A DNA stretch of 32,747 nt from a virus (taxonomy: Duplodnaviria; Heunggongvirae; Uroviricota; Caudoviricetes), in IMG/VR virus record IMGVR_UViG_2636415906_000003, positions 1-32,747 of that record. One strand, 5' to 3'. The translations under genes were made by a program, and so were the position numbers. Shown here piece after piece: positions 1,312 through 31,739 of this stretch. The notes under the pieces are model-generated. The model searched no databases and was not told the DNA's origin. It saw only the letters and a list, made by a program, of their open reading frames with translations. Position 1 is the stretch's first letter. Every line of letters starts with the position of its first letter.

Positions 1312-1326
1312 TGGTGTCCCCTGCAG
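1312..1326. repeat. Prophage att core copy (attL-type): 15-bp exact direct repeat of the 3' end of tRNA-Arg argW
   Basis: tggtgtcccctgcag at 1312..1326 is identical to 31665..31679, the 3' terminal 15 nt of the tRNA on the minus strand. Flanking bases differ on both sides, so the repeat is exactly 15 bp. Confidence 0.75.
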
Positions 1327-1399
1327 ACATCTACTTGAAGCGGCAGGGGATTGATTGGAATGGTGTTTTTTAGATGTGAGAAATATTTTACCCGCTATT

Positions 1400-1600
1400 T
1401 TACCCATTGGCGCGGCTTAAGAGCTTATTTTTGAATTCACAATGGTCACGATATAACCATCTTGCTCGCCCGTGGATAACTTTGGCTTTAGGCAGGTCGC
1501 CGGACTTAATCCGGTCATAGATGAAGGTCTTACCGAAGCCAGTATCAGCCATGATGAATTTCAAATCAACCAGTGAATCAGGCTGTAGTTCGTGTTGCAT
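1400..1600 (-). CDS. torI: Prophage excisionase / recombination directionality factor, TorI/AlpA-like
   Basis: 66-aa ORF at the prophage end opposite the integrase. The translation (MQHELQPDSLVDLKFIMADTGFGKTFIYDRIKSGDLPKAKVIHGRARWLYRDHCEFKNKLLSRANG) matches my memory of E. coli TorI, the KplE1 excisionase. Confidence 0.7.
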   Translation of the reverse strand: MQHELQPDSLVDLKFIMADTGFGKTFIYDRIKSGDLPKAKVIHGRARWLYRDHCEFKNKLLSRANG

Positions 1601-1619
1601 GAGTGCTATCTCCGAATAG

Positions 1620-1635
1620 GGAATCGAACCTGCAA
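1620..1635. repeat. Second tRNA-derived segment: 16-bp exact copy of the argW T-arm region (equals 31679..31694)
   Basis: ggaatcgaacctgcaa is identical to the tRNA segment that directly follows the 15-bp core in argW. The flanking sequence does not fold as a tRNA. Confidence 0.6.
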
Positions 1636-1645
1636 ATCAGGCAAT

Positions 1646-1666
1646 AAAAAAACCGCATTGATGCGG
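1646..1666 (-). terminator. Rho-independent terminator on the minus strand, between ORF 1726..2070 and torI
   Basis: Hairpin ccgcattgatgcgg (1653..1666) directly followed on the minus-strand transcript by a run of 7 U (plus-strand A run 1646..1652). Confidence 0.4.
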
Positions 1667-1725
1667 CGATGGTAGGTCTGGATATCTTGATAAATGAAAA
1701 TGCCTCATCGAGTGTGAGGCTGTGG

Positions 1726-2070
1726 TTAGTCCTTGCGTAACTCGCTAATTCTTCTGTAAGTCTCTGGTGCTTTGTTTCCGTGTATCTTCATTTCAGACTT
1801 CAACAGAGCAACGAGGGAATCCCATTCGGTGAGGATGCCTTTGAATGCCGGAACGCGCTTTGCAACCTTGTCGAATGAATCTCTGATTTCTGGAATCTGC
1901 TCAACAAGTGCAACGCATCGTCTGAAATCGGCTGCGTCATGTGGAGCACCGAAGCTATGACCATAGATATTCTTTTTCAGTCCACATGCGATTGAGGCAA
2001 GAGTTGCGCTACTGATGCCAACATCGCCAGTAGATTGCCATTTCAAAACCTTCATAGCCAAATCTGACAT
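1726..2070 (-). CDS. Hypothetical prophage protein (114 aa)
   Basis: ORF with an upstream GGAGA Shine-Dalgarno (tggagacaagaaATG); no recognisable motif. Confidence 0.55.
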   Translation of the reverse strand: MSDLAMKVLKWQSTGDVGISSATLASIACGLKKNIYGHSFGAPHDAADFRRCVALVEQIPEIRDSFDKVAKRVPAFKGILTEWDSLVALLKSEMKIHGNKAPETYRRISELRKD

Positions 2071-2418
2071 TTCTTGTCTCCATAAAACAAAACTCGCCGT
2101 AGCGAGTTCAGATAAAAGAAAACCCGCACTCGGCGGGTTCGCATTCGTTCAAATTGCGTTTACTTCTTGGCGTTCTGTTCATCCATATCGATATACCATG
2201 GGTTGCTTCCCTTGGGCATGTTTAACGACTGCTCGCGATAGTATCTGATGCGCTCCATGAAATACTCGCGTGAGTGCTCAGGTTGCTCTCATGATACCTG
2301 CTCAGTGATAACAGGTATGTTAAGGCGCTCTCTGTACTCCATGCCTGATGCTGCAAGATCAACGTTTACCTTGTTCTGTTTTTCTTTCGATTTCTCGGCG
2401 ATATTATGCCTGACATTG

Positions 2419-2661
2419 TCAACCCGCCTCCTTCTGAACATAACGGTTATAAATCAGTCCCTGAGGGCCATAAGGAAGCGGGATGTGCAACTCCTCTGGT
2501 TCAGAAACTATCCATTCCCCGGCCATCTCCGCTGGAGAGGTAATGATAAGTTGTTTGCTAATAAAATGACCACTCCTCTCAACAACAAGCTTACCATCTT
2601 CATTAATAAAAGCGTGGATGTCAGGTGTGCTTCCACACTTGGTGATGCAGCGTTTGAACAT
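2419..2661 (-). CDS. Hypothetical prophage protein (about 80 aa; start taken at the internal ATG with SD)
   Basis: ORF 2419..2703; the ATG at 2661 is preceded by a GGGGAGA ribosome-binding site, the upstream ATG is not. Confidence 0.45.
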   Translation of the reverse strand: MFKRCITKCGSTPDIHAFINEDGKLVVERSGHFISKQLIITSPAEMAGEWIVSEPEELHIPLPYGPQGLIYNRYVQKEAG

Positions 2662-2787
2662 TTTGTGTCTCCCCATTTTATGGACGGGGTAATTATAACA
2701 CATTGAAATATAGTAATATTTGACGTAGATTTCTTTTGATCTATAAGCGATTTTTTAATGCTTTTAAGTTATAAATACTTGTTTTCA

Positions 2788-3459
2788 TCACCCATCTTGC
2801 TGCGGTGCTACTATTGAAAAGTGCTCACACCCTTTAGCCCAAATAGTTTTGATAGTTGTCCAACTGACTGGAACCTTGATTTCGATTCTCCCGCTACAGT
2901 CACAAGTTTCGCAATCATCATCACCAAAGCATTCCGGGCAGCTTATAAACGTAGTTTCTGAAAATTCACCGAATAGCACACCCTTAGCGCCGTTCTCGGC
3001 TGTTAGTCTCTTCGGCACCATGACCCAACCATCCGGAATTACCGGAGAGTTGCCGGGTTCTTTAATGTGCAAGCGAGGCTCACCATCTTTTGGCTCAGGC
3101 CACTGGCGCTCCATGTTGATCTTCAATTTATCTTCCATAGCAGCGGTAATTTCAGCATCGCTGATGCCAGCACGGCGCTGTGAATCCCACAACAGAAACT
3201 GCATATCAGCCCACTCGCTAAGATCGTCTGGTTCGGCTGCGGCTTCCAGTGCCTCTTTTGAGAGGTGTTTCAGTGGACCAATGGGGCCAACGCAGCCAAA
3301 TGTGGAGTCAGACCATTTGGCATGCTCGTGGCGAATCTGTTCGCGTTCCAGTGATGCCAGTGCAATCCGTGCCAGTTCCATTTGTTCGCCACGGGTAAGT
3401 CCGTTTTCAAGCGGATTTTTAATGAACAATTCAATACGTTCTTTGGTAATAGTGGTCAT
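2788..3459 (-). CDS. Conserved prophage protein, possibly DUF550/DUF551-type (sometimes annotated dATP/dGTP pyrophosphohydrolase); Cys-rich C-terminus
   Basis: 223-aa ORF with AAGGAG SD. The N-terminal MTTITKERIELFIKNP... resembles a domain I recall from E. coli prophage early regions; C-terminal CPECFGDDDCETCDC cysteine cluster. Confidence 0.55.
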   Translation of the reverse strand: MTTITKERIELFIKNPLENGLTRGEQMELARIALASLEREQIRHEHAKWSDSTFGCVGPIGPLKHLSKEALEAAAEPDDLSEWADMQFLLWDSQRRAGISDAEITAAMEDKLKINMERQWPEPKDGEPRLHIKEPGNSPVIPDGWVMVPKRLTAENGAKGVLFGEFSETTFISCPECFGDDDCETCDCSGRIEIKVPVSWTTIKTIWAKGCEHFSIVAPQQDG

Positions 3460-3514
3460 GTGTTACTCCTTAACCCGCAGTGCTTTCACTGCCTCCTCAC
3501 GCAGTGCCTGATAG

Positions 3515-3832
3515 TCAATCTCGCTCACTGGCTGCCTCCTTTGCTGGGCTTTCTAACTTCTGAGTGGTTGTATCAAACTCAAACAACTTAACCACGTCAT
3601 CAAACAGGACATAATCGCCATCAGAATCTTCAGTCATGTCAGCGCCACAATCCTGACCGAACGAGTCACAACCATCCATATCAAGCTCGTATCGCTTGAG
3701 TTTTGCGATATTTGATAAATTCAGCGCCAGTACAGCAAGGTCATAAACCTCGTCAGCGGTATACCCGGCACCATGCCCATACATTTCAATGCGGGATATG
3801 ATTTCTTCTACACGTTGTTTTGTGATCGTCAT
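3515..3832 (-). CDS. Hypothetical acidic prophage protein (105 aa)
   Basis: ORF whose start overlaps the upstream gene stop (ATGA coupling at 3829..3832). Confidence 0.5.
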   Translation of the reverse strand: MTITKQRVEEIISRIEMYGHGAGYTADEVYDLAVLALNLSNIAKLKRYELDMDGCDSFGQDCGADMTEDSDGDYVLFDDVVKLFEFDTTTQKLESPAKEAASERD

Positions 3833-4290
3833 TTTTGCTCACCTTCCTGTTCTTCCAGAAAAATACGCATAGCCTCAAGCATCTCTTCGGTGTCATACGG
3901 AGACAGATTGTCACGCAGGATGTGTTCAATGCTGTTAATGAACTTGCGGATTGCTTTGCGTTCAATTTCAGCCAGGAAAGCATCGGTGGCTGGGGTGTCT
4001 GATTGCAGAGACTTTGCGCGATAGTCATTCCACCCTCTTGCATACATGGGATTAACTTGCACTCCATCTTTTACGCAATATGCCTGCCCTCCACGGTTGA
4101 TAACCTTGATTTCGCCCATAGCGCCAGACTTCAGCCCCGCATTCTCCGCTGCCAGCGCCGCGCACTTGGCCTCCGCTTCAGCAAATTTACGCACCAGATA
4201 TTCAGCGTTTGTTTCGTTAACCTTTAAATCACTTGGGATGCATTTACCTTTCAGAAATCCATCCATCTCAATTAGTGACATTTGTTTCAT
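3829..4290 (-). CDS. Hypothetical prophage early protein with predicted coiled-coil (153 aa; ead/Ea22-like by position)
   Basis: ORF coupled by ATGA overlap to the neighbours on both sides; Ala/Glu-rich heptad-like segment [18 protein letters not shown]. Confidence 0.5.
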
Positions 4291-4469
4291 TTCTTCCCAC
4301 TCCGCAACATCGCATTCAGATATTTGTTTTGATTCACTGATGGAAAAGAATTTCTCTTAAGCAATTCCTCTCTCGATGGCATTGGCTTTACGCGTTGGCG
4401 AATAATCATTTCTGCCGGAAGAATGCCGGGATTGTATGCAAGTCCTCTCATGGTAAATTCCTCAGTCAT
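4287..4469 (-). CDS. Small hypothetical protein (about 60 aa)
   Basis: Short ORF filling the gap between 4462..4758 and 3829..4290, with its stop overlapping the downstream start; below the size where coding is certain. Confidence 0.3.
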
Positions 4470-4758
4470 TACTGATAGCGCCATAGCGTGAGCGGTAATT
4501 ACGCAGGCGCGGGTCGATATATTCAGGGAAGTGGGTATATGTGGCTTTGCGGAATGGTCGGATTGATGTCTGGTAAATTCGCTCGCGTTCTTCTTTCTCT
4601 GCAAGCCATATACAATGGCGAAATTCCTTTTCCTCTTTCGTTTCCTGCGGTAGCGACATTATCCGATCGTAGTTTTTTCTGAATTTATCCAGCACCTCCG
4701 ATACGGAATTGCCGGAACAGCGGCGCGCGTCGTCCGCACCATACAGAGGCGCTGGCAT
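4462..4758 (-). CDS. Hypothetical prophage protein (98 aa)
   Basis: ORF preceded by an AGGAGA SD (tttaatcaggagaaaatATG). Confidence 0.5.
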
Positions 4759-4771
4759 GATTTTCTCCTGA

Positions 4772-5251
4772 TTAAATTGCGTGAATAGCGTGACGAGGGA
4801 AGGGGAGAGTTACTGGTTCCTCGTCTGGGTAGATAGGTTTGTTATGTTTGTGCCACTCGACATGACATGACTTGCAGAGCCACATCACATCGGTTGGTTT
4901 GCTGTAGTCGCAGTGGTGCGCCTGTGGTTTACATTCTGATCCGCAGCACTCACATTGTGGTGGTCGGATTAGCTTACCGTCGCGCAAAAAATTACCCACA
5001 ATGATGTGGGCTTTTCTTTTCCATGGGTTGCTCTGAATGAACCGCTTTTTGGCTGCGTTACACCGTTCTCTTCCGCGTTCCGATGATTGATATTCTCTCC
5101 TTGCTGATACTCGATGTGGCAATCCAGCGCGTTCTTTGTCGTATTCAGCCAGGCAAGCCCGGCAAGCGGCAGTTAATCCATCTCTGGATGCTCTTCTGAT
5201 TTGAAAGTCCCTTTCTTCCTTCTGTTGATGGCATCTTGAGCAGATTTTCAT
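4772..5251 (-). CDS. HNH-family endonuclease-like protein (Cys-rich zinc-binding)
   Basis: 159-aa ORF with AGGAG SD; paired CxxC motifs and a C-terminal HNH-type signature (AHHCDYSKPTDVMWLCKSCHVEWHK). Confidence 0.6.
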   Translation of the reverse strand: MKICSRCHQQKEERDFQIRRASRDGLTAACRACLAEYDKERAGLPHRVSARREYQSSERGRERCNAAKKRFIQSNPWKRKAHIIVGNFLRDGKLIRPPQCECCGSECKPQAHHCDYSKPTDVMWLCKSCHVEWHKHNKPIYPDEEPVTLPFPRHAIHAI

Positions 5252-5260
5252 ATTCAGCTC

Positions 5261-5734
5261 CTAGAACGGAATATCCGAATCGTCGAAGTTCATAGGTGGT
5301 TCGCTGTGATTCCCTTGCTGCTGAGGTTGCTGTCTTTGTTGCTGACCGTTATTTCGCTGAGGTGAAGACTGTTCATTGCCTCCTTGCTTGCCACCAATCA
5401 TTTGCATAGTTCCACCAACGCCCACGATGACTTCAGTAGTGAACCGATCCTGTCCGCTTTGATCCTGCCATTTTCTTGTCCGCAATTTGCCTTCAAGATA
5501 AACCTCAGAGCCTTTTCGCAGATATTCGCTGGCAATTTCTGCCAGTTTCCCGCTCATTACCACGCGGTGCCACTCCGTCTGCTCCTTTTGCTCTCCAGTT
5601 TGCTTATCACGCCATTGTTCTGACGTAGCAACTGTAAGGTTTGCAAATGCCGTTCCTGATGGTGAATATCTGATTTCTGGATCATGCCCAAGGCGACCAA
5701 TAATGATCACCTTATTTACGCCTCTGCTTGCCAT
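5261..5734 (-). CDS. ssb: Single-stranded DNA-binding protein (SSB)
   Basis: 157-aa ORF with an SSB-type OB-fold N-terminus ([23 protein letters not shown]...), Gly/Gln-rich linker and the acidic C-terminal tail DDSDIPF. Confidence 0.9.
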
Positions 5735-6442
5735 TTATGCCGCCTGTTTTAGCTCGTTAACTCTGATGTTCATTACCTGAACGCATTTAGCCTGCGCCTC
5801 CTCGTTTCCAGCCATTAATTGCCAGTCACGCTGATAACGCTCGATGAGTTTTTTCTTATCAGTTTCTTTCGATGCATAATCGCTGAAGTCTTTCAGGATT
5901 TGTTCGCAGTCAACCGATGGAGATTTCTGGTTGGTATTTTCTGGTGATGGTTTGTTATCTGATGCTGGGATTGCCCAGCCGGGCAGCGTTGGAGGGAGCC
6001 AGTAAAACCCTGTTCCATCCTTCAGTTTTGCCCTGTGCCACCCCTGCTTTTTATCGAGAGATGTTTGTGCGAAACCTTCCTCAAGGTTATACAGATACCG
6101 ACCGATTCCCCATTGAACGGCAGCGCGCTTCATTGCACCGGAACGACCACCTTTGACGGCTTCTACTTGCGTGTTTTCAGCAGCATCCCATTTGGTTACC
6201 CATTCGGAATCAATCTTGATTGATATGCCGCATTCAACTCCGCCGTTGTTGGGAATATCGCGGTATTCATTGCGCCATCCTGCTTTGCCGCAAACATCGT
6301 CCAGGCGTTTCATGATTGCCCGGTTCGTGACATAAGCCAGCACCATAGCCCACACCTTTCCATCGCGTGTTTTACCGCTTTGCTGTATTCGCCATTCGAT
6401 ATCTTCAGGGCTGAATGGCTCATCGAATTTATTCAAATCCAT
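5735..6442 (-). CDS. Single-strand annealing recombinase, Rad52/Sak-like (occupies the bet/erf position)
   Basis: 235-aa ORF directly upstream of ssb in the leftward early operon; the GAMKRAAVQWGIGRYLY segment resembles the Rad52-family motif. Family assignment is from memory and position. Confidence 0.55.
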   Translation of the reverse strand: MDLNKFDEPFSPEDIEWRIQQSGKTRDGKVWAMVLAYVTNRAIMKRLDDVCGKAGWRNEYRDIPNNGGVECGISIKIDSEWVTKWDAAENTQVEAVKGGRSGAMKRAAVQWGIGRYLYNLEEGFAQTSLDKKQGWHRAKLKDGTGFYWLPPTLPGWAIPASDNKPSPENTNQKSPSVDCEQILKDFSDYASKETDKKKLIERYQRDWQLMAGNEEAQAKCVQVMNIRVNELKQAA

Positions 6443-6450
6443 AATTCACC

Positions 6451-6621
6451 TCAGAATGGACATGGCACAAGGAAATAACGCTGATTTAATACTTCGACTC
6501 TGGACAAATTAAGGCATACCCGCATTCCTTCGCGGTCACCATTATGGCGATACCAGAGAGCTTTCTGCGTGTACATGCGTCTCTGTAACTTGCTCTCCTT
6601 CACTGTGGTTGCAAGTGACAT
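6451..6621 (-). CDS. Small hypothetical protein (56 aa)
   Basis: ORF with a strong SD (gaaggagatattcATG); overlaps 6542..6700 in another frame, so only one of the two may be real. Confidence 0.3.
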   Translation of the reverse strand: MSLATTVKESKLQRRMYTQKALWYRHNGDREGMRVCLNLSRVEVLNQRYFLVPCPF

Positions 6622-6700
6622 GAATATCTCCTTCGTTACCGATTAATTCTTTCATCTGACGAATGAATTCTTCGTCTGACCAGTTATCTGTAAAACTCAT
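6542..6700 (-). CDS. Small hypothetical protein (52 aa), coupled to kil
   Basis: Its ATG overlaps the kil stop (ATGA) and is preceded by AGGA; overlaps 6451..6621 out of frame. Confidence 0.3.
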   Translation of the reverse strand: MSFTDNWSDEEFIRQMKELIGNEGDIHVTCNHSEGEQVTETHVHAESSLVSP

Positions 6701-6849
6701 TTCCTGCGATACCACGGAAGGTTGATAGCTGATTTCATCGCTTTATTTGCTTCAAGCCACATTTTGGAATCACCAATAAATCTGGCTATTACTGCTTTGT
6801 TTTGTGCTGCACGAAGCATCTGGTGATTGATGGCTATTTCATTGCGCAT
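6697..6849 (-). CDS. kil: Kil-like host-killing protein (FtsZ inhibitor family)
   Basis: 50-aa ORF in which ARFIGDSKMWLEA aligns with lambda Kil ATFIGDEKMFREA; located directly downstream of cIII as in lambda. Confidence 0.6.
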   Translation of the reverse strand: MRNEIAINHQMLRAAQNKAVIARFIGDSKMWLEANKAMKSAINLPWYRRK

Positions 6850-6968
6850 AACGCCTCCAGTTGTTTCTTTGCTGCTCTGATTAATTGTTTAACTCGGCGT
6901 GATAATTCAGATTCGTGCGGGTAGAAAGCGGACATGACGCCGCTACCCGCGAGCTGAAAGTGCATCAT
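6834..6968 (-). CDS. cIII: CIII-like protein (FtsH/HflB inhibitor, lysogeny promoting)
   Basis: 44-aa ORF with AAGGAG SD; MMHFQLAGSGVMSAFYPHESELSRRVKQLIRAA aligns with lambda CIII MQYAIAGWPVAGCPSESLLERITRKLRDGWKRLIDIL. Confidence 0.65.
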   Translation of the reverse strand: MMHFQLAGSGVMSAFYPHESELSRRVKQLIRAAKKQLEALCAMK

Positions 6969-7034
6969 GGGTAACTCCTTATATTTGATTGCATAACGAA
7001 AACGCCTCGAGTGAAGCGTTATTGGTATGCATAT

Positions 7035-7058
7035 AAAAAAGCCCTCACACTGGAGGGC
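7035..7058 (-). terminator. Rho-independent terminator on the minus strand between N and cIII (tL1-like)
   Basis: Perfect 6-bp stem gccctc/gagggc with 6-nt loop (7041..7058), followed on the minus-strand transcript by six U (plus-strand A run 7035..7040). Confidence 0.55.
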
Positions 7059-7275
7059 AAAGAAGATTTCCAATAATCAGAACAAGTCGGCTCCTGTTTA
7101 GTTACGAGCGACATTGCTCCGTGTATTCACTCGTTGGAATGAATACACAGTGCAGTGTTTATTCTGTTGTTTATGCCAAAAATAAAGGCCACCATCAGGC
7201 AGCCTTGTAGTTCTGTTTACCAAGTTCTCTGGCAATCATTGTCGTCGTTCGTATTGTCCACACCATTGATTCTTA

Positions 7276-7362
7276 TCAATAGTCGTAGTCATAAGGATAG
7301 TCCTGGTATTGTTCCATCACATCCTGAGGATGCTCTTCGAACTCTTCAAATTCTTCTTCCAT
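7276..7362 (-). CDS. Very small acidic ORF (28 aa, MEEEFEEFEEHPQDVMEQYQDYPYDYDY)
   Basis: Preceded by a GAGGTG SD and lying 9 bp downstream of the N stop; too short to be sure it is coding. Confidence 0.25.
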   Translation of the reverse strand: MEEEFEEFEEHPQDVMEQYQDYPYDYDY

Positions 7363-7370
7363 ATATCACC

Positions 7371-7670
7371 TCAAATAAGTGGTTTGCTGCCTAATTTCAT
7401 TTTCTGGCGACCAACACAAGTCACACCCATTTCACTGCGTGGCTTGCGGTAGTAAATACGGTTCTGTTTACGCTCGACTTCTTCTGCCTTCTTGCAGCGA
7501 AGGCTGCCAAGTGATGCTGCTTTGTCTGCTCTGACGCAACCAGAGAGCTTTAGCGCAATCTTCCGCGCCAGTCGCTGTTCTTTCATTGCCTGTTCACGTT
7601 GAGCCTGTCTGCGTGCTCTGCGGCGATTTCTGGCGTTATCGTCAGCCAGATATGTAATGACTACTGTCAT
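7371..7670 (-). CDS. N: Antitermination protein N
   Basis: Arginine-rich motif near the N-terminus (NARNRRRARRQAQREQ) and a C-terminus (YYRKPRSEMGVTCVGRQKMKLGSKPLI) that aligns with lambda N (WYSKPGERGITCSGRQKIKGKSIPLI). Start taken at the ATG with a GGAGG SD. Confidence 0.8.
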   Translation of the reverse strand: MTVVITYLADDNARNRRRARRQAQREQAMKEQRLARKIALKLSGCVRADKAASLGSLRCKKAEEVERKQNRIYYRKPRSEMGVTCVGRQKMKLGSKPLI

Positions 7671-7683
7671 GTTGACCTCCGAT

Positions 7684-7744
7684 GAAACAACTTTGGAATT
7701 GATAGTGATTGCAAAGTTGTTTCTGGCCCCTCGAATTGAGGGGC
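7684..7744 (-). promoter_or_regulatory. Two tandem stem-loops in the N leader next to the N ribosome-binding site
   Basis: 12-bp inverted repeat gaaacaactttg / caaagttgtttc (7684..7695 and 7712..7723) ending 3 nt from the N SD, plus hairpin gcccctcgaattgaggggc (7726..7744). Confidence 0.4.
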
Positions 7745-8068
7745 AGAAAGAGCATCTCGCCACCTAATAGGTCGATGCTCGGATCGAGAGATTTAATTAA
7801 CCTCGGTTTTGAAGTTATGCATTCACATAAATCCTCCTGTTGCATGTGCAGCATTGGCTGTGTTTGGCGGCTGCATTTCGCCCATGGAATTGACTTTGGC
7901 GATTGGATGGCCGGTGCTGAACTCCGGCTTACTGGTTAGAGCGCCCGCACTACCAGTGACGCTGTCTTGAGGCGCAGATTGGTTACTGCTTGCCATGAGC
8001 GCTGTTTATACATTGGTCGAGCATCAGCCTGCTCATTCATCCAATCCCAAAGCCAACTACTCTTTGGT

Positions 8069-8109
8069 TCCCGCATTTCGGCGGGACAATCCCATCAATG
8101 TTAAAGAGC
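8069..8109 (-). promoter_or_regulatory. nutL: boxA plus boxB hairpin in the leftward early transcript
   Basis: On the minus strand boxA reads GCTCTTTAACA (plus 8099..8109) and is followed by the hairpin ttcccgc-cgaaat-gcggga (plus 8069..8086); the same boxA and boxB occur at nutR. Confidence 0.6.
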
Positions 8110-8156
8110 CTGCCAATCTGTTCCGTTTGGCTTCCAGCGTCCTGCTGATGGCTTAA

Positions 8157-8240
8157 ATTTAAGATCTCTTTAATTAATGGTCAAGAGTATTTTTGAAGAA
8201 AACTTAAATTTTCTTTCGTAACTTAAGTTTGGCTTTGATT
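8157..8240. promoter_or_regulatory. OL/pL region with P22-type operator-like sites
   Basis: atttaagatctctttaat (8157..8174) has the same TTAAG..CTTTAA half-site structure as the operators at OR, and two weaker similar sites follow up to about 8240. Confidence 0.45.
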
Positions 8241-8252
8241 TTTAAAGGAAAT

Positions 8253-8275
8253 AAAAAAAAGGGGCGAATGCCCCC
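8253..8275 (-). terminator. Rho-independent terminator directly after the repressor gene stop
   Basis: Hairpin ggggcgaatgccccc (8261..8275) followed on the minus-strand transcript by eight U (plus-strand A run 8253..8260). Confidence 0.5.
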
Positions 8276-8926
8276 TTATGGAAGGTTTGCTAGTTTTGCA
8301 TCGACAACTACGCCGATGATTTTGCAGTTTCCGTTGATCTCGATCATCGGATATTGTGGGTTAAGTGGTTTTAGAAACTTCCTGCCTGCATCAATAACTA
8401 ACTTCTTGAAAGTTGCCTCGTTTTCTCCTTCGAGCTTTGCAACTACCAGTTTCCCGTTACGCGGCTCTACTTCAGGATCGACGAGTATTATCATTCCTTC
8501 AGGGATACTGAGACCGGCCGGAGCCGTCATTGAGTCTCCCTTCACGTCCAACCAAAACGAATCTTCTGAACAGTCTACGGTTGTATCGTACCAGTTATCT
8601 ATTGCACGCTTATGATATGGTTCTACAGCTTCCATCCAGCATCCTGCGCTCACCCAGCTAATCAGAGGGTATGACCCTCTTGGATCATGCCTACTGTGAT
8701 AGGCAATGTTTGAAAGACTTTCCTCTCCTTTCATCAGATAGTCAGGGGAACACTTCAACGCATTAGCCAGGGCGAGAAGATTCTCTCCATTTGGCTCTGT
8801 CTCAGAGCGTTCCCACTGAGATATGGCAACATTAGACACGCCGACCATCTTTCCAAGTGCGGCCTGCCTGATCTTGAGTTCTTTTCTCCGAGCGCGAATG
8901 CGCTCTCCCATCAATTGAGTTTTCAT
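8276..8926 (-). CDS. cI: Prophage repressor, P22 C2-type (HTH plus S24 LexA-like autopeptidase domain)
   Basis: 216-aa ORF that is near-identical to my memory of P22 c2 (MKTQLMGERIRARRKELKIRQAALGKMVGVSNVAISQWERSETEPNGENLLAL...); divergent from cro. Confidence 0.9.
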   Translation of the reverse strand: MKTQLMGERIRARRKELKIRQAALGKMVGVSNVAISQWERSETEPNGENLLALANALKCSPDYLMKGEESLSNIAYHSRHDPRGSYPLISWVSAGCWMEAVEPYHKRAIDNWYDTTVDCSEDSFWLDVKGDSMTAPAGLSIPEGMIILVDPEVEPRNGKLVVAKLEGENEATFKKLVIDAGRKFLKPLNPQYPMIEINGNCKIIGVVVDAKLANLP

Positions 8927-8992
8927 AGTTAAGACATCTTAAATAAACTTGACTTAAGATTCCTTTAGTGGATAATTTAAGTGTTCTTTAAT
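8927..8992. promoter_or_regulatory. OR operator region (pRM/pR) with three P22-type operator sites
   Basis: agttaagacatcttaaat (8927..8944), cttaagattcctttag (8953..8968) and atttaagtgttctttaat (8975..8992) share TTAAG-N4-CTTAA symmetry, in the 80-bp gap between the divergent repressor and cro starts. Confidence 0.6.
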
Positions 8993-9006
8993 TTCGGAGC
9001 GAGTCT

Positions 9007-9192: not shown

Positions 9193-9199
9193 GCAAATT

Positions 9200-24846: not shown

Positions 24847-24867
24847 GGGTTGATGTCATGGATGTTG

Positions 24868-25507
24868 TTAATTGCGAATGGAATCGCGGAACTCTTTGCT
24901 TGATAGAAAAGGATCTGTTCTCCTTAACTCATCATAGTTTTTATTAAACTTTCTTGCTTCACCTGGGTATCTGTTGAACAAAACATTGCAGAAAAAAGAG
25001 AGCAATAACTCACATATGAATGCTAATACCCTGAAAAATAAAGGTATAAAAAGAAGGGAAGGTTCATTGAAGTCTCTATTCCAAACAAAATAGACAATCA
25101 TCCCGACATACCAAATTGATATCCCTATACTGATGATTGTTCCAACAGAGGTAACTACGATCCCGATTAAGTCGGACAGTCTGTTTGCCAGTAACTCATT
25201 TGAGTATCTTGCAATCATATACCGCCAACATTTTGCAATATCATCCTGATCTGTAGAGTCTTCTGGAATAGCTAGGCTTCTACATATTGAAGTAGCTCTT
25301 TTTTTCTCAACTCTTTTTGAGAGCCATCCATTAAAGAGATACATCAACACCTGCGTTGCTATTCCTGCACCAAGTGATATCAAAGACATCCCCAAAAATC
25401 GCCATCCTGGAGATAGTGACTGGTACTGCCAAAACAAAAAAAATTAAAAAACCCAATGAGCCTATGACATAGGCTGATGTATCGCTATATATATCTATTT
25501 TTTTCAT
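24868..25507 (-). CDS. Polytopic membrane protein at the sieA position (candidate superinfection exclusion protein); possibly frameshifted
   Basis: An ATG-initiated 58-codon frame (25507 down to 25331) encodes one predicted TM helix; a second frame (reaching 25437 down to 24868) encodes three more. The frames overlap around T5/G4 runs near 25385..25400. AT-rich. Confidence 0.45.
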
Positions 25508-25557
25508 TGAGTAGCCACTCCTTAGTTTTGAGCAGAACACCGGATGATAATGTTTTG

Positions 25558-25809
25558 TTATGTGTCTTTTGGGATTCTATCCAGTAACTCGTTGGAAATT
25601 TTATCAAGTAAAGATTTTATTTGTTTAAGATCTAATGATTTGTCTACTGATGAGACGTCATATGATAACGCATCCTCAAGAATTTGAACTATCTCTGAGT
25701 TCATAGATCGACCGTTTCGTTTAGCCCTTTCCGCAATAGCACTACGCATGCCGTCAGGCATTCTAACCGTAAATCTTTCTATGAAATTTGATTCGTCTTT
25801 TTCTGACAT
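25558..25809 (-). CDS. mnt: Mnt-like ribbon-helix-helix repressor
   Basis: RHH N-terminus aligning with P22 Mnt (FTVRMPDGMRSAIAERAKRNGRSMNSEIVQILEDALS against FNFRMPMEVREKLKFRAEANGRSMNSELLQIVQDALS); divergent from the arc-like gene. Confidence 0.65.
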   Translation of the reverse strand: MSEKDESNFIERFTVRMPDGMRSAIAERAKRNGRSMNSEIVQILEDALSYDVSSVDKSLDLKQIKSLLDKISNELLDRIPKDT

Positions 25810-25892
25810 TTTCTTATTCGCAAGGCATATGAGCAATAAAAAACACAGTAGCATCATATTGACATTATGAGCAATGGCATCATAATGGTGTC

Positions 25893-25913
25893 ATGACATC
25901 ATGGTGATGTCAT
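25893..25913. promoter_or_regulatory. Operator-like perfect palindrome between the divergent mnt-like and arc-like genes
   Basis: atgacatca-tgg-tgatgtcat is a 21-bp palindrome, with further catcat / gtcatgac repeats in 25860..25925. Confidence 0.5.
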
Positions 25914-25929
25914 TATGACGGAGATATTG

Positions 25930-26106
25930 ATGATGAGCGATGTTCTTTACAGTGGTCGTAAAAGTCAGAGTTTCCAGCTTCGTTTGCCAGCGCGAATGAA
26001 GGAGGAGATCAGACGCGTAGCTGAAATGGATGGAATTTCTATCAACTCTGCGATTGTGCAGCGACTGGCTAAAAGCCTGAGAGAGGAAAGAGCTAATGCC
26101 CAGTAA
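25930..26106 (+). CDS. arc: Arc-like ribbon-helix-helix repressor
   Basis: 58-aa ORF with GGAG SD; SFQLRLPARMKEEIRRVAEMDGISINSAIVQRL aligns with P22 Arc (PQFNLRWPREVLDLVRKVAEENGRSVNSEIYQRV). Confidence 0.7.
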   Translation: MMSDVLYSGRKSQSFQLRLPARMKEEIRRVAEMDGISINSAIVQRLAKSLREERANAQ

Positions 26107-26179
26107 AAATAGTGAAGCCCGGCAGTGCGCGAACACAAACCGGGCCTCTATGTCAGTAACCGTATGCAAGGAAACTAAC

Positions 26180-26806
26180 ATGAATATTGTAGCAAAATCA
26201 GATTACAACTTCCACGGAGTTGAGTTGGTGCCCACCCGTGATATGCATGGTGTTTGGTTTACATCATCTAATATTGCATCTGCACTTAAATACGCAAATA
26301 GTCGTGCAGTAACAATGATTTATAACAAGTATAGCGATGAGTTTAGCGCCGGAATGACTCAGGTACTCGAAGTGAGTACCTCAGGAAATTATCGCAAAAA
26401 AGTGCGAGTTTTCTCACTACGCGGTGCCCACCTAATCGCGATGTTTGCTCGCACTCCGGTAGCCAAAGGGTTCCGCCGCTGGGTGCTGGATATTTTGGAT
26501 CGGCAGGCAGAATGCTCACCGATTGCAAAACAGTTTACTGACGAAGAACTGGTTAATCTCTGCTACTTACAATTGTGGATGGAGAAGAGTCAACAAATGT
26601 GCAAACACATCTACCCAGGAATGAAGCAAATTGGTTCTGAGCTTTCAGGAAGGATTTACGATATTGCATATGAGACTCGCTACATGTCAGAAGAAACCAA
26701 GAAATCGCTTCTTCGTGAAATGAAGAATCTTGGTACCAACAATTTTGTCGTAAAGAACGCTCAGCCAATGCTGGCAAAACTTCGCGGCGAGGAATGGATT
26801 CATTGA
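26180..26806 (+). CDS. ant: Antirepressor, AntA/Bro-N-type N-terminal domain protein
   Basis: Lies downstream of arc; PVAKGFRRWVLDILDRQAE aligns with the P22 Ant motif PEAKPFRRWVTSEVLPSIRQ. Start taken at ATG 26180 after an AAGGAAA SD. Confidence 0.65.
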   Translation: MNIVAKSDYNFHGVELVPTRDMHGVWFTSSNIASALKYANSRAVTMIYNKYSDEFSAGMTQVLEVSTSGNYRKKVRVFSLRGAHLIAMFARTPVAKGFRRWVLDILDRQAECSPIAKQFTDEELVNLCYLQLWMEKSQQMCKHIYPGMKQIGSELSGRIYDIAYETRYMSEETKKSLLREMKNLGTNNFVVKNAQPMLAKLRGEEWIH

Positions 26807-26893
26807 TTGGTGCACAGGACGGCGCAAAAGAAAACCGCCAGTGTGCTGCTGGCGGCCTATGTCACACCCTTACTACCACATAAGGAATGCCTA

Positions 26894-27622
26894 ATGACTT
26901 TTAAGAATGTAGCAAACATCGGATCCGTTGTCACGGATAAAACCATTGACAGCCAGCGCCTGCTTGAGATGGTAAATCAGGCTCGTAGACAGTGCGGTGA
27001 GCCGGAGGTTCGTAATAACAAATTCATCGAGAAAATTGAAGATGAATTGGATGGAGAGCACTACACAAAAAGTGTAGTGCAAAAAGCGAACAAAACTTCG
27101 ATGGTTATCATTGAGATGTCAATCAAGCAAGCATTGCGAGTTGCCGCTCGCGAGTCAAAAGCCGTTCGCCGCTCACTGGTAGACCAACTTGAAAGTATGC
27201 AAGAAGCGCACATTAAAAGCGGTAAATCAGCGAGTGGACTTGTTGAGTATCGTCAAGCGCGAACATTGAAAATGACGGTTGAAGCTGTTACCAATCTGTT
27301 CGATCTGATGCCAAATCTTGCGCCGGAGGCAAAGCAGACAGCGGCAGCAAGTATAATCAACCCGCTCGTTGGTTTTAATGCAATACCTCTTCCGGCAATA
27401 GAAGAGCATTACTACTCAGCAGGGGAGGTTGCAGAGCAGCTTGGAGTAACGGCCAACAAGATTGGTCGCATTGCTAACGCAAACAACCTCAAAACTGAGC
27501 AGTACGGGAAGTTCTTCTTGGATAAATCTGCGCATTCAAGCAAACAGGTGGAAGCATTCCGCTACAATGCGGAGGGTGTTAAAGCACTACAACACCTGAT
27601 TCATGGGAGCAATGTTGCATAA
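26894..27622 (+). CDS. Second antirepressor-like / phage regulatory domain protein
   Basis: 243-aa ORF from ATG 26894 (TAAGGAA SD), immediately after the first antirepressor gene. The domain assignment is tentative. Confidence 0.5.
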   Translation: MTFKNVANIGSVVTDKTIDSQRLLEMVNQARRQCGEPEVRNNKFIEKIEDELDGEHYTKSVVQKANKTSMVIIEMSIKQALRVAARESKAVRRSLVDQLESMQEAHIKSGKSASGLVEYRQARTLKMTVEAVTNLFDLMPNLAPEAKQTAAASIINPLVGFNAIPLPAIEEHYYSAGEVAEQLGVTANKIGRIANANNLKTEQYGKFFLDKSAHSSKQVEAFRYNAEGVKALQHLIHGSNVA

Positions 27623-27843
27623 TGGCAAAGAAAAGATATGGCATTATGCCGCCAAGAATCAAAGGAAGAGCCAGGGTAAAAGGAGATGCTGGAAGGTATC
27701 ACATTCTTGGAGTTCTGTGGCATGAGAGAGCTTTAATTTTAAGTAGACCTCATGGGTACATTGAAAAGGTATCTATAGATAGAGTAGAGATTCTTCCCCT
27801 TACACCTGAAGAAGAAGAAACTTACGGACTTTTTGATAACTAA
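27622..27843 (+). CDS. Small basic hypothetical protein (73 aa)
   Basis: ORF overlapping the upstream stop and followed by a terminator hairpin; AT-rich. Confidence 0.45.
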   Translation: MAKKRYGIMPPRIKGRARVKGDAGRYHILGVLWHERALILSRPHGYIEKVSIDRVEILPLTPEEEETYGLFDN

Positions 27844-27850
27844 CCAATTA

Positions 27851-27879
27851 AACCCGCTTAATCGCGGGTTTTTTCTTTT
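27851..27879 (+). terminator. Rho-independent terminator after the ant operon
   Basis: Hairpin aacccgc-ttaatc-gcgggtt (27851..27870) followed by ttttcttttc; it overlaps the 3' end of the convergent mnt-like gene. Confidence 0.55.
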
Positions 27880-28115
27880 CTAAGAATATCAGCCGCAACT
27901 TCTTTTACTCGTTCCGAGATTAATGAGGCAAGCCTCTCTTCTTCATCACGATACCCGCTTACAGGTGATGGTTTGGAGAGCGATTCTTCCATCGTAGCCA
28001 CAATTTCGGAATTGATAGACCTGTTATTCATTTTTGCACGTTGCTTAATCTTGGCGTGCAACTCGTGCGTAAGCCTCAAGTGGAACTGCGCCTCATCGTA
28101 TTTGCTGTACATCAT
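27858..28115 (-). CDS. Second Mnt-like ribbon-helix-helix repressor, divergent from the tailspike gene
   Basis: [17 protein letters not shown] matches P22 Mnt SKPSPVTGYRNDAERLA, with an RHH N-terminus ([10 protein letters not shown]). Start at ATG 28115 with a GGTGAGG SD. Confidence 0.7.
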
Positions 28116-28247
28116 CAATGCCTCACCAAATGGGTGGAATGGCATCGTAAAACCTACTGTACAAATCAACAATCGTACCGTTTCGGTATGCAACAAATAC
28201 CAACCGTAGCCATGCTGCGGCCATTCCTTGTATCTGGAGCAAATCAA

Positions 28248-30254
28248 ATGACAGATTCAATAAATGCCAATGTTGTAGTGAGTATGCCTTCGCAACTCTT
28301 CACTATGGCTCGTTCTTTTAAAGCTGTAGCCAATGGCAAAATTTATATCGGTAAAATTGACACTGACCCGGTAAATCCTGAAAACCAGATTCAGGTTTAT
28401 GTAGAGAATGAAGACGGCTCTCACGTTCCTGTTTCGCAACCAATCATCATTAACGCTGCCGGATATCCGGTATATAACGGGCAGATTGCCAAGTTCGTAA
28501 CTGTGCAAGGCCATTCTATGGCTGTTTATGATGCATACGGTGCGCAGCAGTTCTATTTTCCGAATGTGCTGAAGTATGATCCTGATCAGTTATCTATAAA
28601 ACTATCAAGTAATATTGGATACAAATACATTGGAATGGTAGAGAGCGCTAACTCCCTTAAAGATATACAAGGAATGTCGATATCTGATAAATTATATTTA
28701 AAATCATACGTATCCGGACTCGAACTTGGTGGTGGGTTTGTTGTAGCTGTAGACAAGTCAATTGCAGTTGATAACGTAATGGTTTTAGAAGGTAACGGTG
28801 TAAATTGGAAGAGAATAAACCCAAGCCTTGAGTTTTCTGTATATGACGCTGGTTACAGCGGCGCTGGGGATATTGCATTATTTATTAATAAAATAAACTC
28901 TCTAGGTTATGATTGCGTTGTTCCATGTAGTGGAGAATTCTCGTCTTTAATTGATATTGATTTCGCGAAGGGTGGGTTAAGAGGATCGAATAAATGCGTT
29001 TTAACTGAGATTAATGGGATATCAGGTGATTATGCAATTAGGTTAAGCAACTCTAATATTTCTTATGAAAATAGGGATGAAATAAATGCAACATCAATTT
29101 TAGATGGCATATCTTTTAAGATGCTAGGATCTAAAAAGATTTTACTTGGAGGTATTGGCACTGGTGAATTATCAGAGTTAAGAATAAGTAATTCTTCATT
29201 CATATCATCTGCTGGAATTGAGTTTCTTGATAATTCATATAGAATTTTATTTGACAAAGTAACAATATCAAGATGTCTAAACAACACAATTATATTTAAT
29301 TCTCCATCAAACTCAGGCGAGGTAATGACATTTAATAATTGTTGGGTTGTTGATAATGGAGGTCCATTGACAATTAGAAATGGTCAATTTATTTTTAACT
29401 GTTGCTCTATGCCATCAGGTAAGAAAGAAGGTTATTTTGATTCTACTGTTTTTATTGAAGATAACGCAACCGTTGTTTACTCAAGTGGAAATATTGAGTT
29501 TCAGCCAGGTCAAAGCTTTGTGGCGTTCTCTGCATCTGGAAGCACAAGAATAAGCATTAAAGATACAACGCTACTTACTCCCTCTGGATATAGTTCAGTT
29601 CCGTTTGTTGTAAATGATGATTCAGTACTTTCATTAACAAATTGCTCATTGCCTTTATTTGACCAAATGGATTTGGCGACAGGATCAGCAACTAGACAGG
29701 TAGTTGGAGGTAATAGTAAAAAAATAATGTCATATGGATGCTATCCACGATCTGGATTTATAACAACTCAGTGGGATAAAGGGAACATAGTTAGTCCATA
29801 CATAAATTCGCTATCAAATGGAAGTGGACAGTTTTTAAACTACTCTAACTGGAGCCTTCAACAAACTGGTTCAGGTGTTGTTACAGCAGGAACGGATTCT
29901 GATGTTCCAAATGATATTATGTTTTCCAGGTCTTTGTATGTAGCAATACCATCTATAGGAGCATCTGCAAAATTTTATCAGGAGTGCTCAGACTGCTCAC
30001 CAGGACGATATTTCCAGTTAGGTTTTTGGGCTAAGAATCAAGTGACAACAATCTCTGGTATTGAGTTTTTTGATAAAGAAGGGAACTCTGTTCAGGGAAA
30101 AGCAACATTTACAATTCCACTAGGCTCCACATGGAATTTCTACGCATTAATAGATATTGTTCCTCCTGGAGCAAGCAAAGTTAGGATTGATTTTGATGTT
30201 TCCGGTGAAGCAGGCTCTCTTCATTTGCATAATGTTATTTATGGGCTGATTTGA
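28248..30254 (+). CDS. Tailspike protein: P22 gp9-like N-terminal head-binding domain fused to a divergent beta-helix receptor-binding domain
   Basis: First ~115 aa closely match P22 gp9 ([48 protein letters not shown]...), with no recognisable P22 similarity beyond about residue 120. The remainder is AT-rich and Asn/Ser/Gly-rich. Start at ATG 28248 after a GGAG SD. Confidence 0.85.
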
Positions 30255-30345
30255 AGATTTCACATCTAATGTGACCAAACTTAGACAAAACAAAGCCTTG
30301 TCTGGATTGCAAAGCTTTGTACTATCCGATAGTGGTTAAGGTTGG

Positions 30346-31503
30346 TCACTCCACCTTTTCATCAATCCAATCCGCCCACCATTGCATCATTTCTCTGCGC
30401 TTTTCTAGATACTGAGCATGGTTGTAAATCCCACGCACAGATCCGCCGTTGGCATGTGCCAGTTGCACTTCAATAGCGTCAGCAGGCCATTCGTGCTCGT
30501 TCATAATTGTGCTGAATTCATGCCTGAATCCGTGACCGCTTTCCAGACCCTCATAGCCGATTTGTTTGATCACAAGCAGCACCGCGTTCTCGCAGATCGG
30601 CTTCTTCTTATCGTTGCGCCCGGCAAAAACAAACTCTGATACTGGTTTGGTGATTGAGCTTAGCGTAGTGAGAAGTTCAACCACCTGGTCTGACATCGGG
30701 ACCACATGAATCTTGCGGCCCTTCATCACACTGGCGTCGATAGTGATAATCCTGTTTTCAAAATCGACGTTCTTCCATTGCATGGAGCGAAGTTCTTTTG
30801 TTCTGAGGGCTGTGTAGCGTAAAACTTTGGTTGCAATGAGCGATACGATACTTCCTGAAAATGTTGCCAGTGCTTTGTTGAATGCCGGGATCTGGTCTGC
30901 AGGAAGAAACGGGAAGTTCTTCTTGCGGTATCCCTTCATGGCGTCAGCAAGGTCAGGTGCTGGGTTATATTTAGCCCTGCCGGTGACAATAGCGTAACGG
31001 AAAACCTCGCCGCATCTTCTACGTGCTTTGTTGGCTCGCTCCATTGCACCGCGATCTTCAAATCTGCGGATTACTTCCAGCAGTTGTATCGGCTCAATAT
31101 CCTGAATTTCAAGGCCGCCGATGATAGGTAAAATGTCGTCATCAAACATTTTTGCAAGTTCAGTTGCATATCCTACTGACCAGACTTGCTTCTTGTGCTC
31201 GTACCATTCCTTGTAAATGGCACTAAAGGAATTGTTGTTAGACGAAGCCTTTTTCGCTTTTACCGGATCGATGCCAACCGAGATGTCTTTCCTCGCAGTC
31301 CATGCTTTATCCCTTGCCTCCTGCAAAGTCATTAGCGGATATTTTCCTACGGTCAGGATTTTCTCCTTACCGTCAATCTTGTAGCGAAGCTGCCATACCT
31401 TTTTCCCTGACACAGGGACATAAAGGTACAGGCCATTACCATCGAGTAGGCGGTATGGTTTTTCTTTCGGCTTGGCTGCTTCAATCTGCTTAACGGTGAG
31501 CAT
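30346..31503 (-). CDS. intS: Tyrosine integrase, IntS/P4-family
   Basis: Adjacent to tRNA argW; the 385-aa product from ATG 31503 (MLTVKQIEAAKPKEKPYRLLDGNGLY...) matches my memory of E. coli IntS. An in-frame ATG at 31539 would add 12 codons. Confidence 0.85.
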   Translation of the reverse strand: MLTVKQIEAAKPKEKPYRLLDGNGLYLYVPVSGKKVWQLRYKIDGKEKILTVGKYPLMTLQEARDKAWTARKDISVGIDPVKAKKASSNNNSFSAIYKEWYEHKKQVWSVGYATELAKMFDDDILPIIGGLEIQDIEPIQLLEVIRRFEDRGAMERANKARRRCGEVFRYAIVTGRAKYNPAPDLADAMKGYRKKNFPFLPADQIPAFNKALATFSGSIVSLIATKVLRYTALRTKELRSMQWKNVDFENRIITIDASVMKGRKIHVVPMSDQVVELLTTLSSITKPVSEFVFAGRNDKKKPICENAVLLVIKQIGYEGLESGHGFRHEFSTIMNEHEWPADAIEVQLAHANGGSVRGIYNHAQYLEKRREMMQWWADWIDEKVE

Positions 31504-31664
31504 GGGTAAAAATCCGGTGGGTAAAATTATTTTATCCACTTTTTACCCGTCATGGAGTGCGGCTGTCAACGATCTGACGCGAACCATTACGAACTGTGAA
31601 TCTACGGAAGGCTTGATATTCAGTGGATTTTGCGGACTGGTACGGATGGGAGCGAACTGATAAA

Positions 31665-31739
31665 TGGTGTCCCCTGCAGGAATCGAACCTGCAATTAGCC
31701 CTTAGGAGGGGCTCGTTATATCCATTTAACTAAGAGGAC
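31665..31739 (-). tRNA. argW: tRNA-Arg (anticodon CCU)
   Basis: Read from the minus strand: acceptor stem, D-arm, anticodon loop CUCCUAA (anticodon CCU), T-arm GGTTCGATTCC and a 3' CCA; 75 nt. Confidence 0.9.

Follow-up and report, generated by a model that had tools for sequence, protein, structure and literature searches.

The stretch analysed here (in the following, the window) comprises the 32,747 nucleotides of the IMG/VR virus record IMGVR_UViG_2636415906_000003 and contains a prophage at the tRNA gene argW, between the bacterial genes cscB and yfdC. From left to right we find the excisionase gene torI, early left and recombination genes, an immC region, replication genes and a nin region, then head, tail and ejection genes of the P22 family, an immI-like region, a tailspike gene and the integrase gene intS (Table 1). 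The portal, scaffold and coat genes stand in canonical order and are colinear with Sf6, HK620 and P22, and the short-tail machine is present with gp4, gp10, the gp26 needle, gp7/gp20/gp16 and a head-binding tailspike. We are confident that this element is one temperate P22-like podovirus genome (Lederbergvirus, Sf6/HK620 subgroup) which integrated at argW and afterwards lost 8,248 bp between roi and the portal gene by a deletion at the tetranucleotide TCAT. Judged by its gene content the prophage is a defective deletion derivative, a point which is absent from an earlier note on this DNA.

Gene identities were obtained from PHROG and Pfam scans of 50 open reading frames (ORFs) and from gene-by-gene comparison with P22, Sf6, HK620, vB_EcoP-683R2 (683R2) and Escherichia coli K-12. 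The starts of the tailspike (TTG 28041), integrase (GTG 31539), P, N, cII and cIII genes were replaced on the basis of profile coverage and of the annotation of identical sibling sequences. Six ORFs gave no PHROG match and were treated as non-coding or unassigned: 2015–2248 (+) and 2248–2706 (+), which lie within the leftward operon, 8229–8615 (+), 7642–7854 (−), 7823–7996 (−) and 25891–26181 (−). A scan of the whole window with Rfam reported a tRNA only; phage RNA families, sar and oop included, did not reach the gathering score.

Table 1. Features of the argW prophage and of its bacterial flanks (positions in the window; XB2 and L012 are sibling copies described in the text)
Feature	Position	Strand	Basis
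cscB 3′ part (sucrose/oligosaccharide major facilitator superfamily (MFS) permease), csc island flank	1–870	+	97.8% vs cscB flank in ON470594.1; empty-site annotation
att core copy, torI side (duplicate of argW 3′ end)	1312–1326		repeat; empty site; Sf6 and HK620 attP cores
torI, excisionase/recombination directionality factor, 66 aa	1400–1600	−	100% vs K-12 TorI, Sf6 gp18, HK620 HkaC
16-nt copy of the argW segment directly after the core, just upstream of torI	1620–1635		also in K-12 CPS-53, HK620, Sf6, 683R2
ea-type early-left accessory genes	1726–4451	−	PHROG matches of unknown function; PGAP annotation of the 100%-identical XB2 copy
holE-like DNA polymerase III theta pseudogene, internal stop	~2160–2441	−	RefSeq/PGAP annotation of identical XB2 sequence
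abc2 (anti-RecBCD)	4462–4758	−	phrog_656; 97% Sf6 and HK620, 92% P22
Sf6 gene 26 homolog, 159 aa	4772–5251	−	100% vs Sf6 protein; phrog_2340
phage SSB	5261–5734	−	Pfam SSB 131 bits; 98% vs Sf6 gp27
Rad52-like single-strand annealing protein, Erf-type C-terminal tail	5735–6442	−	Rad52_Rad22; 99% vs Sf6 gp28
kil and cIII	6697–6968	−	profile scans
ral pseudogene, frameshifted	7195–7292	−	PGAP annotation of identical XB2 sequence; Pfam Ral on 23-aa call
N-type antiterminator, 99 aa	7371–7670	−	phrog_271; 97% vs HK620 N over 65% of length
c2 prophage repressor (helix-turn-helix (HTH) and S24 autocleavage domain), P22 immunity type	8276–8926	−	profile scans, P22 comparison
OR/PR/PRM region	8927–9006		97% vs P22 OR; PR-like promoter 8949–8976
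cro	9007–9192	+	95% vs P22 Cro
c1/cII	9301–9579	+	profile scan, gene comparison
replication gene O, origin-like iterons 10140–10240	within 9753–12078	+	98% vs HK620
replication gene P, DnaB-type helicase	10642–12078	+	100% vs HK620, 99% vs Sf6
nin region: ninB, Dam methyltransferase (12806–13333), ninE, ninF	12384–13679	+	profile scans
roi 5′ remnant (25 codons), out-of-frame fusion to portal gene; 34-aa peptide ends 13776	13672–13746	+	HK620 comparison
deletion junction, TCAT microhomology, 8,248 bp missing	13743–13746		undeleted L012 alignment
portal 3′ remnant, from codon 308 of 708	13743–14947	+	PHROG and Pfam profile coverage
scaffold, Sf6 type	14961–15845	+	head scaffolding PHROG; Sf6 comparison
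coat, Sf6 type	15857–17128	+	Pfam P22_CoatProtein 470 bits; Sf6 comparison
gp4 and gp10 homologs (head–tail adaptor, head closure)	17331–19240	+	profile scan, gene comparison
HNH endonuclease gene between gp10 and gp26 homologs	19243–19737	+	Pfam HNH_3 above cut-off, AP2 below cut-off; phrog_99
tail needle gp26, gp14, ejection proteins gp7, gp20, gp16	19737–24846	+	profile scans, gene comparison
sieA-like superinfection-exclusion gene, frameshifted	24868–25507	−	siblings have an unbroken 212-aa frame with Pfam SIEA
immI-like region: three Arc/Mnt-domain genes, 73-aa ORF	25558–28145		Pfam, PHROG
Bro-N/P22_AR_C antirepressor, in immI-like region	26180–26806		Pfam
second antirepressor-like gene, in immI-like region	26894–27622		Pfam/PHROG scans
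tailspike: P22-type head-binding and CBA120 TSP4-like receptor domain	28248–30254	+	Pfam, PDB match
intS tyrosine integrase, 385 aa	30346–31503	−	Pfam Arm-DNA-bind_3, Phage_int_M, Phage_integrase; 99% vs K-12 IntS
argW tRNA-Arg(CCT), 3′ 15 nt (31665–31679) = second core copy	31665–31739	−	ARAGORN, Rfam
yfdC, bacterial flank	31815–32747	−	sequence comparison including empty-site genomes

The 15-mer tggtgtcccctgcag occurs exactly at 1312–1326 and at 31665–31679, with a start-to-start distance of 30,353 bp. On its own an exact repeat of 15 nt is within chance expectation for 32.7 kb, and unrelated exact direct repeats of 14–17 nt are also present in the window. The att repeat is significant because of its context, namely the empty site, the attP cores of related phages and the placement of int and torI. 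When the prophage is excised in silico by joining window positions 1–1326 to 31680–32747, the product matches many complete E. coli genomes in one piece (1400/1400 nt, 100%); a match over at least 80% of this joined query is present in 1,411 genomes. The genes annotated at the empty site are an oligosaccharide MFS transporter (cscB), a tRNA-Arg and yfdC. Both alignments of the window with Sf6 converge on Sf6 positions 18100–18114, within the annotated attP core 18099–18114, and the HK620 alignments likewise converge on the annotated attP core of that phage (1368–1383). ARAGORN and Rfam agree on a single tRNA, tRNA-Arg(CCT), and the right copy of the core is the 3′ end of this tRNA gene. In K-12 the att core has 16 nt, CTGCAGGGGACACCAT (PMC2951348). 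In the window 15 of these 16 nt are duplicated; the 16th base is a C at 1311 and an A at 31664, as the bacterial flank is the csc island and not dsdC. Thus, the two repeat copies are the recombination junctions and the boundaries of the prophage are confirmed. Integration would have proceeded by IntS-catalysed site-specific recombination between the attP core and the 3′ end of argW, with the duplicated 15 nt keeping the tRNA gene whole. The flank itself differs from the K-12 counterpart, as the csc sucrose-utilisation island (cscB) occupies window positions 1–1311 where K-12 has dsdC.

The integrase gene adjoins the att copy on the argW side and torI is located at the opposite end of the prophage; compared with K-12 the att regions are 94% (torI side) and 97% (int side) identical. 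The torI product also matches the PDB entry 1z4h, ‘Tor inhibition protein’, with an E value of 6.6e-43. This recombination module is common to KplE1, HK620, Sf6 and CUS-3, and TorI is 100% identical to HkaC and to Sf6 P18 (PMC2951348, PMC3509656). With this module the KplE1 remnant of 10 kb is able to excise in vivo (PMC2951348); by analogy, and given its intact genes and sites, the element described here can probably still excise. The arrangement put forward in the earlier note, a 15-bp repeat around approximately 30.4 kb with the integrase beside argW and a TorI-like excisionase at the far end as in KplE1, HK620 and Sf6, therefore stands in every part: the copies are exact, they coincide with an uninterrupted and 100% identical argW site in many complete E. 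coli genomes as well as with the Sf6 and HK620 attP cores, and the two proteins are 99% (IntS) and 100% (TorI) identical to their K-12 counterparts.

Close to the left att copy there is a further stretch of argW sequence. The 16 nt GGAATCGAACCTGCAA are found exactly at 1620–1635 and at 31679–31694, the former copy being 293 bp inside the prophage, in the region that is annotated in HK620 and Sf6 as pI promoter/cII site. Without the 293-bp torI segment the match of the phage to the 3′ end of the tRNA would run unbroken over 30–31 nt. This copy may be a relic of how the unusual order int–attP–torI arose.

The colinearity of the window with Sf6 and 683R2 skips from the end of ninF (13679) to nucleotide 923 of the portal gene (13743). 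The 63 nt in between correspond to the start of roi, which follows ninF in HK620, and the HK620 alignments to window positions 13315–13746 and 13743–19241 share the 4 nt TCAT. Consistent with a truncated gene, the portal remnant covers positions 296–671 of the 681 positions of the PHROG portal profile and 276–594 of the 594 positions of Pfam P22_portal. By exact-protein look-ups we could find the undeleted parent form on contig DAOCTU010000002.1 (assembly GCA_029447735.1, here L012). This contig is 100% identical to window positions 2806–13746 and 13743–15085 and has 8,248 bp between them, flanked by two copies of TCAT. The 8,248-bp segment carries open frames for Roi (240 aa), YbcO, RusA, NinH, Q (207 aa), a holin, an endolysin, Rz (spanin), a 50-aa ORF, Tad2-like, gp49_66 and DUF2560 proteins, the small terminase (Sf6_terminase), the large terminase (470 aa) and the first 307 portal codons. 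In the window ybcO, rusA, ninH, Q, the late promoter region, the holin, endolysin and spanin genes, terS, terL and portal residues 1–307 are absent; hence the terminase, the whole portal, the lysis genes and the late activator that a full genome would hold are found in the L012 segment and not here. A single illegitimate recombination event at TCAT, later than the integration, would have fused roi at its codon 25 with the portal gene at its codon 308. The reconstructed intact prophage measures 38,601 bp, a normal size for the group. The Tad2-like gene (L012 14917–15396; Pfam PF11195, anti-Thoeris family) lies between the lysis and terminase genes and was lost from the window copy.

The title of the earlier note implies an intact, inducible P22-like prophage. 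In favour of this, open frames remain for int, torI, immC, the replication genes and most virion genes, and the att core is there in both copies. Nevertheless, Q, holin, endolysin, spanin, terS and terL are absent and the portal gene is without its first 307 codons. In addition, its length of 30.35 kb falls some 8 kb short of that of Sf6 (39.0 kb), of HK620 (38.3 kb) and of the undeleted sibling (38.6 kb, reconstructed). We therefore consider an intact prophage extremely improbable.

The defect of the window copy can be placed in a series of sibling prophages. E. coli XB2 from chicken (NZ_CP162303.1) and NC22 from duck (NZ_CP109953.1) carry the prophage at the same cscB/argW site. XB2 matches window positions 1–7930 and 13743–32747, and NC22 matches 1–7445 and 16854–32747. 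Identity is 100% with XB2 over the right arm (13743–31664) and with NC22 over the part of this arm that starts at 16854; the shared sequence differs from both strains by one homopolymer indel at 25431, and NC22 has in addition a single nucleotide polymorphism at 28433. XB2 retains the C-terminus of terL and the whole portal gene, both of which are missing from the window, and is devoid of the region from the N-proximal PL through the N-terminus of terL. Among the three copies, that of the window alone retains the immC, replication and nin genes. As XB2 and the window each keep genes that the other has lost, they must derive by independent deletions from one fuller ancestor. RefSeq lists cscB as a pseudogene (internal stop) in both XB2 and NC22, and dsdX is truncated in both strains.

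Further siblings at this cscB/argW site were found by a look-up with the N protein, which is present in about 105 index blocks, and were mapped on a 41-kb reconstructed reference. Twenty of the 24 contigs read are siblings, and approximately 16 of these 20 have a large deletion, as grouped by neighbouring genes. In shared sequence the siblings differ by at most seven mismatches per aligned block. Besides the window type (8,248 bp, TCAT), deletions were seen of 12,581 bp in XB2 (microhomology TT), of 9,458 bp (TT) and 8,004 bp (TA) as first and second deletion in NC22, of 16,287 bp in both GCA_051839365.1 and GCA_035819455.1 (TT), of 10,737 bp in GCA_020417645.1 (AA), and of 3,897 bp in GCA_006237375.1, which has three more of 123–170 bp (1–3 nt). 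All deletion junctions have a microhomology of 1–4 nt, from which we infer microhomology-mediated illegitimate recombination as the mechanism. Undeleted where seen are L012 (reference 2806–23333) as well as GCA_017787085.1 and one ENA metagenome scaffold (1–17670).

At least six different patterns of large deletion occur. The six have a common gap, reference positions 13747–16901, in which lie the genes from roi to Q together with the late promoter region, the holin gene and about two thirds of the endolysin gene, so that every large deletion takes out Q and the holin. Because the deletions of the siblings overlap in this way, the recurrent loss suggests selection for hosts that survive induction. 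The series agrees with the general picture of prophage domestication which Bobay, Touchon and Rocha reportedly gave in 2014. The right junctions of the first NC22 deletion and of the 3.9-kb deletion of GCA_006237375.1 are only 1 nt apart (reference 16904/16905, in the endolysin gene), possibly by a break hotspot or by coincidence. Chi sites were sought as a cause of the clustered endpoints, and none is present in the 41-kb reconstructed reference. It is a rather unlikely but conceivable idea that this lineage is unusually prone, or unusually strongly selected, to lose its late region and that the endpoints at 16904/16905 could mark a site-specific break. If this were true, the lineage would be a natural series for the rate and mechanism by which a lethal prophage is disarmed while immunity, exclusion and excision are kept.

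The same junction as in the window is found in two other assemblies, on a 243-kb contig of NCBI assembly GCA_030177795.1 (100% over 20.5 kb) and on a 14,299-bp contig of the separate Logan assembly of SRR35492383 (100% to window 7333–21631). These contigs bear on the alternative of a prophage that is in reality complete, with an 8.2-kb gap produced by the assembly. In favour of an artefact is that a search with window 13300–14200 detected the junction in 0 of 5,426 complete E. coli genomes and that the exact 39-nt junction was not found in metagenome and species-representative genome collections; the homopolymer difference at 25431 also hints at sequencing noise in the window assembly. On the contrary, the 4 bp shared at the junction are far too short for an assembler to collapse 8 kb, two further contigs carry the junction at 100% identity, and deletions of this sort are real in the siblings XB2 and NC22, whose genomes are complete. 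We thus regard an artefact as very improbable.

Several observations have to be held against our own reading, that of a real deletion in the window copy and of selection as the probable force behind the recurrent deletions in the siblings. The first is the absence of the junction from the genome collections just named. Secondly, the Logan and NCBI contigs may share an isolate with the window and therefore confirm the assembly rather than represent an independent strain. In addition, our view of L012 covers reference positions 2806–23333 only and not the right arm, and selection as the cause is deduced from the overlap of the deletions.

Complete E. coli genomes match the two arms of the prophage differently: for the left arm no match extends over more than 69% of its length, and the right arm is matched at 100%. 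At first glance this might point to two unrelated adjacent elements or to a hybrid formed by deletion between tandem argW prophages. However, the left-arm matches are weak because XB2 and NC22 have deleted most of the left arm. Apart from one deletion, the gene order is colinear with Sf6 and HK620 throughout, there is a single pair of att cores, and L012 agrees at 100% with the window to the left as well as to the right of the junction, and therefore both arms belong to one phage genome. As XB2 and NC22 had deleted the left arm and L012 spans both sides, the tandem-prophage hybrid was dropped, and we assign next to no probability to two elements of either kind. The proposal of the earlier note, one P22-like lambdoid prophage at argW with the recombination module of KplE1, HK620 and Sf6, is thus borne out by genes, att sites and synteny.

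What could a single P22-like prophage with this deletion still do? The frames of int, torI, c2, cro, c1, N, O, P and of all virion genes from scaffold to tailspike are intact. The C2 repressor would hold the element silent and give P22-type immunity. SOS-induced autocleavage of C2 (S24 domain) would free PL and PR and lead to excision by TorI/IntS and to replication by O and P; the element can probably still replicate after such cleavage. A simple scan predicted plus-strand terminators only at 12107–12130 (tR2-like) and 17133–17150 (after coat). As no terminator is predicted between these two, N-antiterminated transcription from PR may now extend into what is left of the head genes, scaffold and coat among them, which would yield at most portal-less procapsids. 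Because Q, the lysis genes, the terminase and a whole portal protein are missing, we infer that neither lysis nor DNA packaging nor infectious particles would result from this copy.

Thus, the element should be annotated as a cryptic prophage unable to produce phage and not as inducible. It is an ordinary prophage of a well-characterised kind (P22-like, argW) in deletional decay. An undeleted parent together with independently deleted siblings at near-zero divergence is a clean natural case of microhomology-mediated prophage decay. Deletion rates could be estimated from this series, which also lends itself to the question whether selection to survive induction drives domestication; it is a useful yet unsurprising illustration of how prophages decay.

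Among the early genes the annealing protein deserves comment. Its residues 4–136 match Pfam Rad52_Rad22 with 91.9 bits (cut-off 20.3), and no Pfam ERF match is obtained at E ≤ 0.01. In a BLASTP comparison with P22 Erf only residues 157–235 align, to Erf residues 134–205, with 62% identity, and PHROG names the family ‘Erf-like’. By sequence, the protein is a domain chimera of a Rad52_Rad22 N-terminal domain and an Erf-like C-terminus of about 80 residues, which explains the clashing names (‘Erf-like’, ‘Rad52/Rad22’) across Sf6, PHROG and RefSeq.

The tailspike is likewise composite. Residues 4–114 match Pfam Head_binding (219 bits), and residues 114–668 match the catalytic domain of CBA120 TSP4 (PDB 5w6h, E 3e-213). 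CBA120 TSP4 cleaves the O-antigen of E. coli O78 (PMC8825819). The sibling hosts are chicken and duck isolates, and an identical empty site is present in a genome of an avian pathogenic E. coli (APEC) O78. As the tailspike is TSP4-like, the siblings come from poultry and the empty site is found in APEC O78, the original host range was probably O78.

Two further genes of the right arm are of interest. The HNH gene is absent from Sf6, HK620 and P22; it is 100% identical in 683R2, where it is annotated, apparently wrongly, as ‘endolysin’. The frame of the sieA-like gene is broken by one extra A at 25431, in a run of eight A, relative to XB2, NC22 and two further siblings. Slippage in the homopolymer, an error in sequencing or a genuine frameshift may account for this.

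When the window is compared with phage records by megablast, only P22-like podoviruses and lambdoid phages are found (among them IME10, N7, Sf6, mEp235, HK620, CUS-3 and 683R2), with mosaic partial matches of which none covers 80% of either half. In agreement with the mosaic ancestry proposed in the earlier note, the element combines a P22 immC, HK620 O and P, Sf6 annealing and head genes and KplE1-type IntS and TorI, and the alignments with HK620 and Sf6 are colinear apart from the one deletion. The assignment of immC to the P22 type holds: C2 has 199 of 216 residues (92%) in common with P22 C2, with few changes in the N-terminal (HTH) part, and Cro and the OR region follow with 95 and 97%. 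The helicase is indeed of the DnaB type, with matches to both DnaB (107 bits) and DnaB_C (204 bits). Two statements have to be modified. A Rad52-like protein plus SSB instead of Erf is correct as regards the Rad52_Rad22 domain, the neighbouring SSB and the missing ERF match, but not for the Erf-like C-terminus; and virion genes of P22 type is correct at the family level, with tail and ejection genes 54–94% identical to P22, but for portal, scaffold, coat and gp4 the variant is that of Sf6 (99–100% identical to Sf6, 21–37% to P22).

Sf6 (AF547987) shares with the element the argW attP core, IntS (99%) and TorI/gp18 (100%), abc2, gp26, SSB and the Rad52-like gp28 (97–100%), the P helicase (99%) and portal, scaffold, coat, gp4 and gp10 (99–100%). 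On the other hand, Sf6 has another immunity region (C2 69% over 36% of its length), another O (66%), another tailspike receptor domain, the conversion gene oac, a knobbed needle and no HNH gene, and it is complete, whereas the window copy is without 8.2 kb. HK620 (AF335538) has the same recombination module, nearly the same O (98%), P (100%), gp26 (93%) and gp7 (97%), head genes of the Sf6 type, and roi after ninF, of which the first 75 nt survive in the window. It differs in its repressor (42%), recombination genes and tailspike, has an O-antigen modification gene and is complete. P22 (NC_002371) is similar in overall gene order, in immC, in gp10, gp14 and gp7 (93–94%), in the head-binding domain of the tailspike and in an immI-like region that holds an antirepressor and regulators of the Arc/Mnt type. 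In contrast, P22 has another integrase and another att site, its int and xis genes lie side by side, and it has Erf where the element has a Rad52-like N-terminal domain. Distant variants are found for the coat (21%), portal (33%), scaffold (32%) and gp4 (37%) of P22; its terminase is another one and it carries the gtrABC conversion genes. Finally, KplE1 (CPS-53) of K-12 occupies the same argW site with IntS and TorI at opposite ends and is also defective (PMC2951348, PMC3509656). KplE1 is, however, a 10.2-kb remnant without repressor, replication or virion genes and is flanked by dsdC, whereas the element described here retains 30.4 kb with immC, the replication genes and most virion genes next to the csc sucrose island.

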